Shown here in pieces: positions 15,310 to 60,668 of a DNA stretch of 64,000 bases (positions are counted from its first letter, which is position 1; each line of letters opens with the position of its first letter). Origin of the DNA: Octopus vulgaris (lineage: Eukaryota); the NCBI GenBank assembly GCA_951406725.2, contig OX597815.1, positions 40,114,001 through 40,178,000 on the forward strand, written 5' to 3'. Both the position numbers and the translations under genes were made by a program. Under the pieces are notes generated by a model. That model did no database searches and was not told where the DNA came from. It saw only the letters and a list, made by a program, of their open reading frames with translations.

Positions 15310-15435
15310 TTGCAGTCGTAGTTGCCTTTTTCTTTTGTTGGGCTCCATTTCACATCCAGCGTCTTCTCACTCTTTATGTCAGTAACTGGACGCCACCTTT
15401 ATTACAAATACATTTACATTTATTTTATATATCGG
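15310..15435 (+). CDS. Internal exon (TM6-ECL3) of a neuromedin U/pyrokinin/CAPA-type class A GPCR
   Basis: ttatttcAG acceptor, G|GTAAGT donor, phase 1-1, 126 bp; encodes (x)AVVVAFFFCWAPFHIQRLLTLYVSNWTPPLLQIHLHLFYIS(G), with CWxP and the WAPFHxQRL signature of PRXamide/NMU receptors. Confidence 0.93.
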
Positions 15436-18940: not shown

Positions 18941-19594
18941 GGTGGCAGTTAATATCAGGATCAGTGCAATCAAGCCTTCCTCTGCCTCAAATTTGTAATT
19001 TGTGTTTATGTCATGAATCCATAGAGGACAGTGAATAATACAAACATTGGATCGGCATTTCAATTTTTTTTGCAATGTTTGGCTATACTTCTTTAAGTTC
19101 CGAGTTCAAATCCCACCGAGATTACCTTTTTGTCTTTCATTCGTCCTAGTCCATAACTATAAAATGGCAAATAGCAGTCGTTTAAATTTACTATACTATT
19201 CCCTTAATGTAATAAATCAATATTTCTAAGATTTGTGGTTGACGAATAACCTTGAGCAGCATAAGTAGGTTCACTAATTAATTACGTTTCTCCTTATGAA
19301 TGCAAATCTTGCCTGTTTGACTTTTAATTTTGTCCTTCCGATGTTGGTAAAATAAGCACAAAAAATTTTACTAGAATCGATTGATGTTGAGTTTAGATCT
19401 TTACAATTTTAAGAATTAATATTTTCTCCAAGAAATGTAACAGTAACTAAGAATTCCTTTGTGTATATATATCAAGAGCCAGATTTTTCAAGCTTTTTAT
19501 TTCTTTGTCTCAAAATATTTATTTCCTTTTCTTTATACTATTTATTTGTTAATTAGTTATTAATTCAAAAATCTCTTTTTTTCTTCCACTACAG

Positions 19595-19749
19595 GGATCC
19601 TGTATTTTTCCCATTCGGCTATCAACCCAATCCTGTATAATATAATGTCAGAGAAATATAAGTCTGCATTCTTACAAACATTTTGTTGTCGTCGGTGCAA
19701 GGATGTTCAGCACAGAGTCAATTCTGTAGTTACACAGCATACCGGTTAG
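19595..19749 (+). CDS. Terminal coding exon (TM7, helix 8, C-tail) of the same GPCR
   Basis: Polypyrimidine tract plus cAG acceptor; splices in phase to the previous exon (G+GG=Gly); encodes ILYFSHSAINPILYNIMSEKYKSAFLQTFCCRRCKDVQHRVNSVVTQHTG*, with NPxxY and post-helix-8 cysteines. Confidence 0.93.
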
Positions 19750-19944
19750 CAACAACCGAACGAATATCCACTAAGTAAAAAGAGAAATATGACTGTAGAC
19801 GAATCTACAGTATAACCGAAATTGTTATGGTAATTATTTAAAAAGATAGTCATTAAAAGCTGAGATATCGTTCCCTTTATATCAAGAGCAATATTGTAAT
19901 AGGTTACATTTTCAAATCTAAAATACTCAGCGTATAGTATAATT

Positions 19945-20363
19945 GGATCTTTTCGGTTTGAACGGCAGTTCTTAGCATAATTTCTAGGTAACTAAAAAAT
20001 GTTAAGCTTCGTATACTGGTAGAATGTGTTTATAAAACATCTTTTTCTCTTGGCTTTTATTGAGAAAATTCTATAGTTTGTAAGATATTTGTTGCTTTTT
20101 TTTTCTTCTTCAATTTCTGCAATTTCAACCAATCAGTGACGTCTATTGAGTTAAAAAGCATTCTGTGCCGTATGAATATGTCCCTCGTTTAAGAAACAGA
20201 TTGGGTTTATTTACATTTGTGAAGAAAAAAAGATACCCTTCCCCTAGCCCTAACCCTAACTAACCCTAACCCTAAAAGAGATTGAAATGTAATAGATCGA
20301 TTCTAGGGTCATAATTATGGGTGACACCGCTAGAAAAAACTGCCGTTCAAACCGAAAAGATCC
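19945..20363. mobile_element. Second copy of the TTAGGG-containing MITE, opposite orientation
   Basis: Same TIRs as 11381-11824; TSD GTATAATT/GTAAAATT (7/8); CCCTAA repeats near 20245-20275. Confidence 0.92.
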
Positions 20364-21830: not shown

Positions 21831-22735
21831 TTGTATTATGGCTAGACCTTTAGAAATATTTGAACTCGTCAGTGCAAGCTATCGACATTATTATTTTATG
21901 CCCTAGCATCTGTCCAACTTAGTATAATGTCTGCTGATTTATTTTTATAATTGATGCAACCGAGATGTTCCAATTGAGGTGGCGGAATCTGAACTCAGAA
22001 CACAAAGAGCTGAAAACAAATACCACAAAATATGTCATGTGACTCTTTAACAATTCCCCAAACCACTACCCTAGATTGGTAACTAGATTTGTCGACCCCG
22101 ATCAAAGTCGATATCGGTGATATTTGAAATCAGGGCACAGAGATCTGGAACAATAACTGCAAGACATTCTACCCGATCCTCTAACGACTTGGCTAATTCG
22201 CTTAACGAAACTTATTTTTTTATTAATACAGTATCAATACTGTTTACTTACCTGCTGGTGATTGCTTACAGGAAGATAAAATTGAGTCTGGAAGACTTCA
22301 GTGCATTATCCATGGACACACAAGACATATTCGGTAACGAAAAATGAACTACCAACACTTTAGCTCTGCCTCCGTTAATTACTAAACAACACAGATATTA
22401 AATAAGACCTCAAAGAAGTCGTTCGATTTGCATAAAAAAATCAGTCAAATCTTTCTCAAAACATACCAACCTGTTTGAAACAAGGAAGTACATACTGGAT
22501 AATGCAGACCAAGATATACTGTCTAAAAATATGACGAATGGTCATGGCTGGAACACTGTTAAGTATGTATCAGGTCGATGAGAGTTGAGCTGGAGTTGAA
22601 CATCAACCACAGCTAAAATATATACGAGCTTATGACGTAGCCAGCCTTTAAATGTTCGGCTGACCTGCTGATAATAGCGTCTTAGAAAATAAAGAACAAT
22701 GGTTAATATAGCTCTGAGCTCATGTGTCTTGAAGC

Positions 22736-24520: not shown

Positions 24521-27226
24521 AAATTCTATCTCGAGTCTTAATCTCTGATTCTGAGATGCGTATATTGATGAAAACACCCAAACAAACACGCGCACACGAT
24601 CTATGTAGTTGCAGATAAAACTGGGCAAAAAGTCTCTTTCCTTTAATGTGTAATGATTGATTGCCAAACGATATCCTAATTGGTTGGGATAAGGGTGAAA
24701 TCAACTACACTAAGCTTACCAGCCATGTTTTCACTTTACAGATATCCTGAGCTGCCACATTCTCCTTAGTAACATACCTGTTGTCTCCTCCAACAAACTG
24801 TGAGGAAAAGCTTATAAGTTATTCGTCATAGAAAGTATATAAAGTCACTAAACGAGAAGCATTATGAAATAGCTTCGTTGTCGTCGTCGTGATGATAATG
24901 GTGGTGGTGGTGGTGGTGGTGGTGTTACACCTGCTGCTGCTAGGAACGCAATGATTCCTTCATAGGTATATTGACATTTAATTATATGCGTGTATCATAT
25001 GTGTTTATAGTCCTACCGTATCTTATTATACACTCTTTTGTCTGTGTGTAATCACTTTTTAAGTGCATATAAATTCTAGATTAATCATCAATTAACTTAA
25101 TATTTGATAATTATTGTATATCAATTTCTTTGATTTCGCAAAAGGTTACAAATCTCGGAAATTCATAATACTCTCCATAGCAAAACATTGTTATCTCCAT
25201 TGTGCGTATCACATTTTCACAAATATTTATTTAGTATTGATTTAGCACGGCATAAGGTGATGCTGGTGGGAGTGCTCTATCTTTGATGATGTTTTCCGTA
25301 AGCCTTTAGCAGTGCAAGTGAAGCAAAATGGCTTCAAACTAAAATCAAGCGTTCATATTCTATGGCGCTCGCATATATAGACCACAACTTTCATACACAA
25401 ACCATAAACTCAATATAAAATCTAAAGAATATATGAAAAGTGAAATAGTAATAATAAACGCATAGAGAAAACTTATATGGAAAGTCAAACTAAAACAAGA
25501 TTATTTATTCATTAAGATACTGTTGGTACCGAAAACAATGTTTTAACGTTAAAAACAATTTCTTTTTATTATTTTTTTACTAGCTCCAGTAACTCCGGTC
25601 TGTTGCTTAGCTGGGATTGAAACCTTGAAACAAGAAATTACATTTCGGTTAATTAATGGTTAGTTCGTTTGCTGTTAACCGGTTGATCAGAGTGATACTT
25701 CTGTTCTATCATGCTCTTAAATAATGTCTAACCGATCTTCAAGATGCAAAACCTTTATTTATTCAATTACGATGGACGCTTTCATGTTTTTCATCCCTCC
25801 ATCAGCTTTTCTTCTTTTTTTTTTTTCGTTTTTATAAATCCAAGATCTTCCTTTCATAACTGTTTTATCGGCAAAAGCCTTGGTTTATTATCATGGCATA
25901 CCCTCATAGATCATCATTCTTCTTCATTTGTGAATAAGTTTTCTGTGAACAATAAAAAAAGAAGACAACATAAGAAATTATGATATATCTCTCACAAAAT
26001 ATTATTGTCAAAATAACACTGATATGTGTGTATGTGCGTGTGTATTTACATACATACGCGCATACGCACGTGCATACATATATATTGTCATCTGACAATA
26101 TCAATCTCCAAACGAACTTGAAACATTTCTTTCAACAGCCATCTTTTCACATAAATAATAATATGAATATTCACATAAATTTGGAGAAAGATTTTAAAAA
26201 CCTTTATTGCCTCAACGTTTCTGAAATGCTTCACATGTAGACGATTTCCTAGATAAACTACGATGTATTTATCTAAATAATACTTCACGGAGCAGTTTTT
26301 ACAATTACCTACTTTGCTTCCTCAAATGAAATATTTTTCCCTTATATAAATATTTTCTTTCAATCTTCTCCATGAATCTTATAAGCAAATTGACAAATTA
26401 CAATGACATTTATACCAGTTCCCATAAATCCGAAATATGTAATATATTTGTCATTGCCTTTCATTTCACCGTATATACTATATATACATTTCTCTCCCTC
26501 TTTCTCTCTCTCTCTCCCTCTCTCTCTCCCTCTCCCTCTCTCCTCTCATATTGCTCTATCTCCTCTCTGTTTTGTGTGTTTAGTGTGGTTATTTTGTTTT
26601 ACAAAGTATATTTATATTGTTACAATTATCGCTACCACTGCTGTTCAAAAGTCACTTGAAAACTACATATGTCGTTTCCTCTTCAGTCATAGAAGACAAT
26701 ATTTATTGAATGCTCCGAACTTCTAGCTTCCAGTCTTGCAAATTGTGAACATTGAAGGAATAATGAATTATCATAAATATAATTTATGTCGACTTCTTTT
26801 GACTGTGTTCTTTTCTTTATTGTAGCCATCACAGTTAAAGGTCACGCTGGACATCTTTTCCAAAGACACATCTGCATATCTGTTGTGGTGTGGTTGATTG
26901 AATGATATTACTGTTACGTTTTTTATGTTAGTGACATAGAAGGCAAAGTTAACCATTGTGGGGTTCCAAATTTTAAGGCAGAGAAACGAAACTAATTGCT
27001 GTCAGGAATCTAGAATGGTTTTCTAGTGTATCTATCGATATATCTCTGGATAGAGTATCAGACCACAAACCGAAAGAACGCTTAACTCTTAAATGACCCA
27101 GCCCACATAGATATGTGTGCACTATATAACAAAAACAATTTGTCTCAGTAAGCGTTGACAGCATTAAGCCATTAATAAATGCTTCGTATTCAAAGCTTAA
27201 AACTCTCTTGCAGGTGTCACTCACAA

Positions 27227-34084: not shown

Positions 34085-34490
34085 TTTGTAGCAGCGAAAT
34101 TTCAAATCTTAGTGCTATGCTTGTTACAGACAACTTAATGGGGATGTTAGTACAAGTTTCTGTGTCTACTGCTGTCAAAGGATCTATTGGAAATATTTTT
34201 ATCCGAATGTTGCTATCAAATGACAATAATTTTCTTCTGACTTGTAGAATAATGTTTTATCTTGTTCGAAGAAATCGAGAATAGGTCGATATATGAAAAT
34301 GGCTTTTAGAATGAAGCCTTTTGTGATTGATGGATGTGATGTCGGATTGTGACGAAAGTACATTTGTGTTTGCGATGAACAGATTGGAATCAATTTATAT
34401 TTACATCCGTGACTTTGCATAGAGCTTGGTGTGAATTTTTCTTTGTTTTAGAAATAATTTTGTCTCGAATTTCCTTCTTAGCTTTACACA
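34085..34490 (-). mobile_element. Decayed PLE RT fragment (second lineage)
   Basis: IN*FQSVHRKHKCTFV..SDIT..HPSITKGFILKA resembles the PLE RT motif A region. Confidence 0.5.
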
Positions 34491-34499
34491 GTTGAATGT

Positions 34500-35160
34500 A
34501 GACGGAACAGGGGATGGAAAGCTTGGTGTGTTTAGGGTGGGAGGAGGAGAAGTTGTGGTATGAGTGTGAGTCTGTGTGTTTGTAGTGGAAGGAGGTGGTA
34601 AGAGTGGAGTGATGAAAGCTGACCGAAATGTCAAGAAAGGAGACAGAGGTGTCAAAGATAGTGCAGGAGAAGTGGAGGGCAGGATGGAAAGATTTGACAA
34701 AAGAGAGGAAGGAGTCTAGATGTTCGCGAAATATTTGGGCCTCAACATAGCCAACGAACAGGTTTGCATAGTTGGGGCCCATTCTCGTTCCCATGGCCAC
34801 TCCCGAGTACTGATGGTAGAAATCACCCGCGAACGAAAAGCAGTTGAGTGAGAGAACAAGTTCGGCCAGACGAACCAGTGTGGAGGTGTCGGGTTAGGGG
34901 TTGGATCGTGGTGAGGGATCACCGTGTAAGGGCTCTGGATGTCGAGAGTGAAGAGAAGTTTAGAGGGGCCAGGAGGGAAGGAGAAAGAGTTGAACAAACG
35001 AAGCGTATGGTTGGTATCATGGATTTGAGAAGGGAGAGAAGCAACTAGGGGGGGGGGCAAGGGAGGGAGAAGGGTAGTGGAGGAGTTGGGGTAGTGGCAT
35101 TGGGTATGATGGAATGGAGGAGTGAGTGGAGTTTATGAAGTTTGATGTTGGCAACAAATT
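34500..35160 (-). mobile_element. Penelope-like (Neptune-type) RT fragment
   Basis: LLFTLDIQSPYTVIPH, GVAMGTRMGPNYANLFVG, VSFLDISV and HYKHTDSHSYHNFSSSHP are typical PLE RT motifs. Confidence 0.92.
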
Positions 35161-39830: not shown

Positions 39831-41184
39831 TCCGGTTAGGGTAAAAGGTAGAGTATTTCCAGAGAAGCACTCAACCCGAATTCTGTGCTATCGTTGCTGT
39901 CGGATTCCAGACTAATGCCAAAGTTGATCATGTGTAGAAAATCCTGGTTTCACGACGGTAAAACCGTTGTGTGGTGATAGTTGTTTGATCTCGAATTTCC
40001 GTGGTGTGGAAAGCACCCCCCCCCCACCCCCAGTAGCTTGCAGTGGACAAATGATTTACAATATCAATCAATCATTTTCCTTCTTGGTAGATTATGAATT
40101 CCAGTTCATGGTTCCAAGGTTCGTTGTGATGATGGATTTTTAAAATTTATCATTTTCTTTCTTTTTTTCAGATGCAAGAACTTTTTTTTTTTTCAGATGC
40201 AAGAACCTTTGAAGCAAAGAACAAAATTTTCCAACGACAACTAGTGTTAGTAAATTAAATGCTCACAGGAAAACTGGAAAAGTTATATTAAGCTGGGACT
40301 CCAGCTAATTAACCAATCTTTATTAAATACTCTTTTTCACATCAGAGTTGTATTCTTTCAAAATTATTACTCTAAAGCGAAGAGTTTTCAAATAAATTAA
40401 TAAATCGTTTAATTATTTGATAAATAGGCAATGAAAATGGATTACCTGGCATTCTCTTGCCGTTTAAATCACTAAGAACTATGCGTGTTGTCTGATAACT
40501 AAGATGTTGATTCCTCTGCTATCTAATTTATAATTCGATGTGTTAATTGCGAAAAAAAAAATCATTCATATGATTAAAATGTAAATTAGTTAACACGAAT
40601 GTCATGTGTGAATTATTAGCTTTCACGAAAAAAGAGGTAACAACCGCCATATTTCAATAGAGGAGATTTGCCATTATTCAGATTATCGTTTCTAAAAATA
40701 CCGGATAATTTTACATTGTATGCAATCTAATATCGCAGTTTTTCAGTTGAAGACTTTACGGGTCTTAACACCAAAATTAGTTCGCAAGGCTATATTTTTT
40801 TCAAGGCATAATTGTTTCTGCTATCCAAAATATCAATGTAATATTCTCATTTTTCTTTATTTTCCCATTTTTGTGTATGAGCAGTTGAATGTTAAATAAA
40901 CATGATGTTGCAAGCCTGATATTTAAAGCATGGTATTTAAGTAATCGTAAAGAAGAGCATCAGTATGTAATTCAAAGATAAAGTAAACTGGAACAATCAG
41001 AATTCATACTTCAGTATAAGTTGATAAGTTACATCAGTTCTATACCACTATGCGCTTCATATCGTCTACTTTATACGACAATAATAATTCCTCGAAAATA
41101 ATTCAAGTGTCATTAAGTCAGTAATTAAATCTTAGTCTCCATGTTCCTGAAGCAAGTTAGTTTGATGGAGTGCAACAGACTTAA

Positions 41185-58289: not shown

Positions 58290-60668
58290 TACCTGATTAC
58301 CTTCCCCTGTTTGGAAATCTTATACCTCATATGCTAGCGAAGAGATGACACAACATCGGTAAGGAAATTTGAGAAATTTGAAAAGAAAATACCAAACCCT
58401 CTGTGGTTGGTGCAAAGTCCCTTCCAGACCTAGAGTTACGTGGTGGTCGAATTGTATGGTAGACAAAGCCATTAGAGCAAAGAAACAGGCCTGGAAAGCC
58501 TGGAAGGGTGTGGGTAGCGGAGAACTGTACCAGGTAGCCAAAAGGAGGACTGGGCGGCAGGTATACATAGCCAAGAGCGAAGCGGTAAAGAAGAAGCTTG
58601 CCAATGTCCAGTGACGTGAGGACCAAAGAACTGAAGTATTTTGGATTGCAAGACAATATGTGAGAGAAAATTGTGATGTCACAGGAGAGAAATGTGTCCA
58701 CATGGATGATGGTGCACTTGCTTTTAATGATTCAGAAGAGAAGGAGGTTTGGAGAAGCCATTAGGAAAGACTGCTGAATATGGAGAATGAATGGCAGGAG
58801 GAGAGCCTGCCAAATGTTGACCCAGTAGAGGGGCGGGCTACCCGAATAGACAGCTCCCTAGTAGATAAGGCAATTAAAGTTATGAAACCAGGAAAAGCTC
58901 CCGGTCCATCAGGAATCACTGCCGAGATGCTTAAAACATCTGGTGATGTGGGCTATGGCCTAGTCACCCGCATTGTAAACCAGGTAGTTTATGACGGAGT
59001 CATACCCAACGACTGGCGTAGCAGCACCATAGTCAACTGCTACAAGGGTAAAGGTGATCCTCTAGATAGAAATAACTACAGGGGTATCAAACAGCTGGAT
59101 CAGGTGATGAAGGTCACAGAGAGAGTCATAGCCCATCTCATCAGGGAGAAAGTCTGCCTAGATGAGATATAGTTCGGGTTTGTGCCGGGTAGAAGAACCA
59201 CTGACGCCATATTCCTGATTCGACAACTGCAGGAGAAATACCTAGCTAAAGATAAACCCCTATACTTAACTTTTGTGGACTTGGAGAAAGCCTTTGACAG
59301 GGTCCCCCGATCCCTTATCTGGTGGGCGATGGGGAAACTGGAGATTGACGACTGGTTAATAAGGGCTGTACAGGCCATTTACAGAGAGGCCGTTAGTAAG
59401 ATTAGGATTGGCAATGAGTATAGTGAAGAATTCCGGGTAGAAGTAGGCGTTCACCAAGGTTCAGCCCTCAGTCGCCTTTTATTCATCATAGTCCTCCAGA
59501 CAATAACAGAGGAATTCAAGACGGGTTGCCCCTGGGAGCTCCTCTATACTGATGACCTGGCCCTCATAACAGAATCACTACCGGAACTAGAAAAGAAATT
59601 TCGTGTGCGGAAGCTACGTTTAGAATCAAAAGACCTTAGAGTCAATGTAGCAAAGACCAAAGTTCTAGTAAGTAGGAAGGCGAACTCATCACACACCCCT
59701 TATGTAGGTGGCCCTGCTCGATATGTAGAAAAGGTGTAGGTAGAAACCCCATAAGATGTACCCAGTGTAAGCTATGGACGCATAAGAGGTGCGGCAATAT
59801 CAAAGGAAAATTAACCGAGAAGATAGCTTTCGTGTGCGGGGAGAAACTAGAAGTAGTTGATAGTTTCCGCTACCTAGGTGACCAAGTTAGTAGTGGGGGT
59901 GGAAACTCAGAGAGTGTTACCACCAGAATAAGAATAGCCTGGGTAAAGTTGAGAAAGTTTCTTCCCCTACTCGCTCAGAGTGAAAGGTAGATTGTACGAC
60001 GCCACGCAGTGAAACATGGGCTGTGACTGCGGAGGACATCCGTAGGCTCGAAAGAAATGAAGCTAGCATGATCCGCTGGATGTGTAATGTCAGTGTGCAT
60101 GCACGAGAGTGTAAGCGCCCTGAGAGAAATGTTGAACATAAGAAGCATCAGATGTGGAGTGCAGGAGAGACGTTTGCGTTGGTATGGGCATGTACTATGG
60201 ATGGATGAGGAGAGATGTGTGAAGGAATCCGGGGTAGAGGTAGACCCAGGAAGACATGGGATGAGGTGATCAAGCATGACCTTCGAACGTTGGGCCTCAC
60301 AGAGGCAATGACGAAAGACCGAGATCTCTGGAGATATGCTGTGACTGCGAAGACCCGACAAATGAAGTGAGTTTATGGCTCGCAGGACGGCCTGCTGTGC
60401 TAACCTTGGATCATGGGGTGACCTGCTGTGCTTGAGGAGAACTATTGAGTCAAGTACATCAACATCAAAATAAAATCAAATGGAAATTGTAGTTGTGATG
60501 CACCCACTACACTCACGGAGTGGTCGGCGTTAGGAAGGGCATCCAGCTGTAGAAACACTGTCAGATCAGACTGGAGCCTGGTGCAGCCTCCTGGCTTCCC
60601 AGACCCCGGTCGAACCGTTCAACCCATGCTAGCATGTAAAATGGACGTTAAATGATGATGATGATGAT
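58290..60668 (+). mobile_element. RTE-clade LINE, 5' truncated, disrupted ORF2 plus 3' UTR and (GAT)n tail
   Basis: KAPGPSGI, NYRGIK, FVDLEKAFDRVPR, GVHQGSAL, LLYTDDL, FRYLG and RRLRWYGHV, with stops and frameshifts. Confidence 0.95.

Follow-up and report, generated by a model that had tools for sequence, protein, structure and literature searches.

A UAG stop codon probably opened by A-to-I editing in an octopus neuromedin U/PRXamide-type receptor, ahead of a predicted PDZ ligand

The receptor gene and the sequence beyond its stop codon

The window, by which we mean the whole 64,000-nucleotide stretch that was analysed (G000:C2:40114001-40178000), holds the 3' part of a receptor gene whose locus is single-copy in G000. 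The gene has four coding exons, two of which lie within the window, and the two upstream coding exons are located 5' of it, at G000:C2:40058707-40059039 and 40108546-40109280. The penultimate coding exon (15310-15435, + strand) encodes TM6, the third extracellular loop, and the first half of TM7; it is identified by its Pfam 7tm_1 match, its 100% match to P0008, and its splice sites, and two spliced contigs, X20 and X10, have its 3' end as their loose end. The constitutive coding part of the last exon (19595-19746, + strand) encodes the end of TM7 with NPILY, helix 8, a Cys-Cys pair, and a short tail, matches the ends of P0002, P0005, P0006, and P0008, and is closed by a TAG at 19747-19749. 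The 7tm_1 profile (PF00001) is complete, covering profile positions 1-260 of 260, both in P0008, which corresponds to the window exons (179.8 bits), and in P0005 (177.8 bits); with a curated cut-off of 30.5, this places the protein among the rhodopsin-family GPCRs. The best matches in the PDB are human NMUR1 (8e-61) and NMUR2 (4e-56), followed by the neurotensin receptor (5e-53). Among 56 matches, those with names are pyrokinin, capa, or NMU receptor-like and the others are unnamed or generic, and the cluster relatives from O. vulgaris, O. sinensis, and O. bimaculoides are named pyrokinin-1, capa, or NMU receptor-like. Judged by these closest named and solved relatives, the gene is assigned to the neuromedin U (NMU)/PRXamide-type GPCRs of Octopus.

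Six database models make up the cluster, of which four contain this exon and end at its TAG, and two use another last exon. The models that stop at this TAG come from O. sinensis, O. bimaculoides, and O. vulgaris (NCBI/UniRef). Isoforms P0002 and P0006 skip exon 3, losing TM6, and in isoforms P0004 and P0007 exon 2 is joined to a different, short last exon at 40196-40255 (+ strand), which was located by tblastn as an exact match to the O. vulgaris model; none of these four isoforms would be a whole receptor. The nearest paralogue, and the only close one, is found on C13 of G000 (L004:295-768), where TM6 to the end is contained in one exon, without the intron seen in the window gene, and where the tail is different, longer, and without a PDZ-type end. 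By eye, the last intron has several short interspersed repeat copies in both orientations between 17950 and 18950, and open stretches resembling pieces of retroelement reverse transcriptases are seen elsewhere in the window, at 59173-59739 (+ strand) and 34390-34893 (- strand).

Beyond the TAG, the frame stays open for 21 codons, QQPNEYPLSKKRNMTVDESTV (19750-19812, + strand), up to a second stop, TAA (19813-19815, + strand), that is identical in all runs covering it. Class I PDZ ligands have Ser or Thr at position -2 and a hydrophobic residue at the free C-terminus, and the extension ends in just this way: the codons for E-S-T-V stand directly before the TAA (19801-19812, + strand), form a predicted class I PDZ ligand, and are unchanged in X8, X9, X10, X11, X13, and X20. 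As a chance baseline, we used the 7137 stop-to-stop stretches in all six frames of the whole window. Stretches of at least 21 open codons number 1994 of 7137 (28%), and ends of the form [ST]x[VIL] occur in 215 (3.0%), [ST]xV in 40 (0.56%), and [DE][ST]xV in 5 (0.07%), a count that includes the extension of this receptor. Because openness over 21 codons is common and a [DE][ST]xV end is rare, the signal of the extension lies in its end motif rather than in its length. An earlier reading made from the letters of the sequence alone (the sequence-only reading) had said as much, calling the 21 open codons unremarkable and the terminal motif the signal, and the two frequencies bear this out. Its coordinates were also accurate throughout, for the TAG, the 21 open codons, the TAA, a hairpin within the extension, CGGTTA at 19743-19748, TAACCG at 19813-19818, and the TAG-CAA-CAA context. 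Counted from NPILY on, the unedited form has 41 residues with 3 Ser/Thr after the Cys pair and no PDZ ligand, and the edited form has 63 residues with 7 Ser/Thr after the Cys pair and the predicted PDZ ligand.

Position 19748 in DNA-type and RNA-type runs and in the published record

We compared 8 of 24 listed runs, all as contigs. None of the 24 is on record as RNA, and five runs (from 4 studies) were guessed to be RNA-type and three (X13, X11, and X8) DNA-type; none of the five RNA-type runs has any depth on the intron, and X20 and X10 are spliced to the upstream exon. In X9 (organism A, RNA-type), a 1692-base contig with a depth of 10.6 has a single difference over 19594-19945, which is A>G at 19748, a position corresponding to G000:C2:40133748. 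The same change is found in X20 (organism E, RNA-type) on a spliced contig whose depth of 3.88 is below our error line of 5. X10, from organism A and from the same study as X9, is spliced too, and one of its contigs stops at 19747 and the next begins at 19749, presumably an assembly outcome where two letters are read at 19748. X12 and X19 (organism A, RNA-type) have A at 19748, with X19 reaching only 23 bases past it. The DNA-type runs X13 (organism E), X11 (organism D), and X8 (organism A, flagged as a possible source of the reference DNA itself) all have TAG, and X13 carries all 6 other listed substitutions of X20 without the change at 19748. The tally at this position is thus G in 2/5, a break in 1/5, and A in 2/5 RNA-type runs, with the two G runs from two octopus taxa, as against A in 3/3 DNA-type runs. 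A high-copy repeat in the 3' UTR (19945-20240) is very abundant in the RNA-type runs, and the X9 contig ends at its edge.

An A in DNA and a G in RNA at the middle of a UAG is what defines a stop-loss site, and it is the result that the sequence-only reading had named as its check: G appears in RNA-type contigs and is absent from DNA-type contigs. We consider this evidence strong but not final, because none of the DNA and RNA runs can be paired as those of one known animal, and because an editing level cannot be read from contigs. The alternatives that had been offered with that reading, a sequencing error or a recent or private nonsense allele, were rejected, since the TAG is present in 3/3 DNA-type runs under three organism labels and the models of three Octopus species end there.

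A table in print probably includes this edit already, for one species. Table S5-1 of Zhang et al. 2023 (Cell Rep, PMC9989829), which covers four neural tissues and used matching DNA for its calls, lists in row 3145 a TAG=>TGG change of O. bimaculoides at KQ420068:41595, codon 96 of Ocbimv22026542, a "neuropeptides capa receptor-like" model with a single row in that table, in 4 neural samples and at a level of 0.716. We take this row to be, very probably, the orthologous site, a match made on name, codon, and length rather than on sequence: exons 3 and 4 together give 93 residues against a 95-residue fragment, with 2 residues unexplained. The record of P0005 bears the same name, "neuropeptides capa receptor-like", and the tail of the sole close paralogue is longer. 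The level of 0.71635 is common to row 3145 and row 183 (D. melanogaster DopEcR) of the same table, which is either a coincidence or a table slip, and X20 and the data of PMC9989829 may not be independent of one another. As it stands in the table, row 3145 is a bare entry for a fragmentary model, without the extension, the PDZ motif, a second species, or a history. The table holds 13 TAG=>TGG rows for O. bimaculoides, and stop edits are not discussed in the article's text, where "stop" occurs once, in a reference. Row 4230 of the table concerns an "NMU receptor 2-like" model with an Ile>Val edit.

Stop-loss sites are rare in the comparison of Shoshan et al. (PMC8382921), which treats UAG>UGG as a known class and, within conserved orthologue groups, counts 4 such sites for O. 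vulgaris and 2 for O. bimaculoides. The supplement of PMC5850729 had no match for this site, nor did a term search of PMC9068888, and no discussion of the site or of octopus capa receptor editing was found in the literature searched, a search that several editing tables fall outside. Because the edit is probably already tabulated, the novelty of the site is limited; what was not found in print is a second taxon with the edit, its link to an ancestral PDZ end, and a candidate distal partner. Together with a published row that very likely describes the same site, the contigs support the stop-loss A-to-I editing first proposed from sequence, and we are close to certain that the editing is real.

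Ancestry of the extension and RNA structure around the stop

In a quick tree of 56 rows, built without outgroup families, the octopus protein pairs with P0003 (69% identical, SH-aLRT 100), an unnamed homologue that may be the squid or cuttlefish orthologue. Counted from NPILY, P0003 continues for 143 residues, the last three being T-x-V. When the extension and P0003 are anchored at their ends, 5 of the last 14 residues are identical (Leu, Ser, and Lys at -13 to -11, Asn at -8, and Val at 0). This score, for a 14-residue span that was picked after looking and rests on one homologue, is reached by 0/136 other homologue ends and 0/1993 random stretches, and by 2/1993 random stretches either when gaps are allowed or when the last three residues are omitted. 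An unanchored local alignment of the extension and P0003 is not significant (37% of 2000 shuffles). Similar ends recur in the family: of 53 further homologues, 50 have the anchor motif, and among these [ST]x[VIL] ends are found in 21/50 and [ST]xV ends in 14/50, spread over the tree, with 29/50 having no [ST]x[VIL] end. Another 88 new representatives, 85 with the motif, gave 27/85 and 10/85, respectively. The family frequencies of 21/50 and 27/85 for [ST]x[VIL] compare with 215/7137 by chance, and the median homologue tail is ~152 residues, compared with 41 in the unedited octopus form. Since the extension resembles the end of P0003 and S/T-x-V/I/L ends are common in the family, the TAG is likely derived and the PDZ-type end old, and we consider it likely that the extension is the ancestral receptor C-terminus. 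Of the earlier proposal that editing adds a tail, a lengthened receptor tail remains likely, but given its likeness to the C-terminus of P0003, this tail looks restored rather than newly added.

A search for exon-sized orthologue fragments found none, and among 50% representatives we saw no further cephalopod-like tail and no octopod outgroup with or without the TAG. Between organisms A and E, the coding part of the last exon has 3 changes, all synonymous, the extension has 1 change, a non-synonymous Thr>Ile at 19793 in organism E that lies outside ESTV, and the first 120 bases of the UTR have 4 changes and a 16-base insertion in E. The frame of the extension is open in all taxa compared (A, D, and E). 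With so few changes, a selection test on the extension is not feasible. The same two organisms show 0 differences over the 127 bases from 19666 to 19792 and 8 substitutions elsewhere in 19595-19935, numbers too small for significance.

ADAR needs double-stranded RNA, and in local folds A19748 is unpaired, lying in the 6-base loop of a 5-bp hairpin (19743-19758, + strand; P 0.31-0.999 by window) in which CGGTT pairs with the nearer AACCG at 19754-19758. The sequence-only reading had suggested a helix across the stop, between CGGTTA (19743-19748) and TAACCG (19813-19818); this candidate was dropped, as CGGTT prefers AACCG 19754-19758 and the pairing has a P of 0.000-0.069 in local folds. The 8-bp hairpin that it saw inside the extension (19792-19811, + strand) is indeed perfect and is predicted in 4/4 local folds (P 0.99-1.00), and the Thr>Ile change of organism E turns one of its C-G pairs into a U-G wobble. 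When folded with 25580-25740, A19748 becomes paired (P 0.997), a level that shuffles also reach. Long-range pairing would most likely provide the double-stranded substrate.

The segment at 25636-25715 (+ strand), 5.9 kb downstream, is the best complement that either strand of the window offers; it is on the sense strand, has a single match in G000, and lies before the exon at 40196, from which the transcription unit appears able to extend beyond it. AATAAA motifs stand at 22688, 23983, 25453, and 25951. Its predicted duplex with 19700-19835 has 64 colinear base pairs, a number not beyond chance; the edited A falls within an 11-bp helix, and the 8-bp hairpin forms a side arm. Windows of this segment rank first and second of 254 by co-fold pairing, where 11 windows exceed 0.5, and it is top by duplex energy and by Watson-Crick score (45.5, top of 1268 windows), but only 7th of 240 by dimer energy gain. 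Shuffles match it in 3/40, 57/200, 24/100, and 15/100, and when G-U pairs are scored they do so in 125/200, where the segment is not the top match; other exon pieces find complements that are equal or better. We therefore did not accept 25636-25715 as an established partner, because shuffles reach its scores and other exon pieces do as well, and, although it is the best candidate, we give it a little less than even odds of filling the role. A second segment complementary to the edited site is found at 25595-25615, 40 bases before this one.

Interpretation and comparison with known systems

The reading that we prefer, at a probability of roughly 0.7, is that the TAG of the DNA becomes TGG in part of the spliced RNA, likely through A-to-I conversion by ADAR (UAG to UIG, read as Trp), and that this adds Trp and 21 residues with a predicted, likely ancestral ESTV end. 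The gene carries a TAG and an open extension, and DNA and RNA differ at this codon in two octopus taxa. The ancestral tail would have been long and would have ended in S/T-x-V. In the Octopus line this tail may then have become shorter, and an in-frame TAG may have gone to fixation 22 codons ahead of its former end, the stop being tolerable since editing reopens the frame. ADAR would edit UAG to UIG on part of the messages, with ribosomes reading Trp and continuing to the TAA, and ADAR activity would set the proportions in which each cell mixes short and long receptors. Scaffolding and recycling of GPCRs are governed by PDZ ligands on their tails. The long receptor, which would gain four more Ser/Thr and the predicted class I PDZ ligand, may be the form held by scaffolds, and it may differ from the short one in localisation, recycling, or desensitisation. 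We think it very likely that the long form is translated; counting against a translated tail, a squid proteomics preprint (10.64898/2025.12.15.694494) ranked stop-to-Trp recoding as non-existent in its data. For binding of the long form to a PDZ protein, as its predicted end would allow, we lean towards yes, and a regulated and adaptive ratio of short to long receptor we hold to be doubtful. A more far-reaching version, somewhat less likely again, would have an ancestral PDZ anchor made editing-gated, with the derived amber codon opened through a duplex 5.9 kb away and neurons setting the scaffolded and free shares by cell type or temperature; if true, a restorative edit would have been turned into a regulated switch on a whole interaction module.

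The closest competitor shares this mechanism and differs from the preferred reading only on purpose. It holds that editing restores a long receptor that is needed, that the short form is waste, and that the TAG drifted to fixation hidden by ADAR, with no switch involved, and we put it only slightly below an even chance. It agrees with the ancestral look of the extension, with the high published level (0.72, PMC9989829), and with the argument of Jiang and Zhang (PMC6881472) that coleoid recoding is accounted for by restorative editing, with no net gain. It agrees less well with the difference among RNA runs in the letter read at 19748, with the finding of Shoshan et al. (PMC8382921) that shared sites with strong editing are resistant to A>G mutation, and with the retention of the TAG in three species' models and 3/3 DNA-type runs, though one A>G would give TGG; this last point is weak because the species are close. 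The extension could instead be idle, the edit being real but one of thousands, the PDZ-like end due to chance or decay, and the short receptor the working form. Such a view draws on the 13 TAG=>TGG rows in O. bimaculoides alone (PMC9989829), on the 3% of random stretches that end in [ST]x[VIL], on the non-synonymous nature of the sole extension change between A and E, and on the C13 paralogue and the 29/50 homologues without such an end. We consider it unlikely, given that [DE][ST]xV ends occur in just 5/7137 stretches, that the likeness to the end of the sister protein P0003 is register-specific, and that the frame is intact in all taxa compared while the adjacent 3' UTR has a 16-base insertion in E.

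CARYYA is the consensus after UAG in programmed readthrough, and the CAACAA found here departs from it at one position. The leaky context UAG-CAA-CAA was therefore correctly described by the sequence-only reading, one mismatch included, but readthrough is not needed, as the RNA itself carries G at 19748. Despite the C directly after the stop, a stable hairpin 43 bases downstream of it, and a report that editing does not account for most readthrough in Drosophila (PMC3840789), we hold it very unlikely that ribosomes reading through UAG-CAA are the main source of the long form; such readthrough could give a few percent on unedited messages at most. Hardly more probable is that the G at 19748 is a genomic TAG/TGG polymorphism with no editing at all. 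The DNA and RNA runs are without matched individuals and contigs drop minor alleles, which favours this view, but the polymorphism must be common to two taxa ~2.5% apart and yet absent from 3/3 DNA-type runs and the models of three species, the change is an A>G in a UAG triplet, and the row of Zhang 2023 (PMC9989829) was called against matching DNA.

It is disputed whether recoding in coleoids is adaptive or only hides harmful mutations (PMC8382921, PMC6881472), and the adaptive and harm-permitting hypotheses predict different patterns across octopods. Most recoding sites swap one residue; at this site, a single edit would put on or take off an entire recognisable receptor module, and therefore both receptor forms can be expressed and compared. 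Because all the database models that we saw end at the TAG or lack the exon, they likely miss a form that may dominate in neurons.

Among the systems with which the octopus site can be compared, DopEcR and CG18208 are GPCRs, and the tail added in hepatitis delta virus carries a prenylation signal. As far as the sources describe them, the octopus site has the sequence of a stop-loss site and works like the stop edits of DopEcR, the delta virus's amber/W site, and the stop-correcting edits of fungi. In the table of PMC9989829, Drosophila DopEcR has an ADAR-type UAG to UGG change at the stop of a receptor gene that is kept between sister species, at levels of 0.72 in D. melanogaster and 0.59 in D. 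simulans (Table S5-1), and CG18208 and a Ptychodera GABA-B receptor are listed with stop-loss edits too; all three belong to receptor families other than that of the octopus receptor. In hepatitis delta virus, an amber codon edited by ADAR likewise yields a lengthened protein whose role differs (PMC6832723, PMC8402866), but there it lies in a viral RNA on a rod-like duplex, rather than in a host GPCR with a predicted PDZ ligand. In filamentous fungi, editing reopens a genomic UAG in PUK1 and Dbf2 and restores or extends the protein (PMC4817773, PMC13123824), a process that, unlike the one proposed for the octopus, is ADAR-independent and tied to the sexual stage, and that prefers hairpin loops (PMC11156358). 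Of the same receptor family is the NMU receptor of the slug Deroceras reticulatum (P0053), whose forms Ra and Rb differ only in the C-terminal tail and respond differently, by ~twofold (PMC7749107). These two forms are made by alternative splicing, and the slug receptor falls in another subclade of the tree than the octopus receptor.
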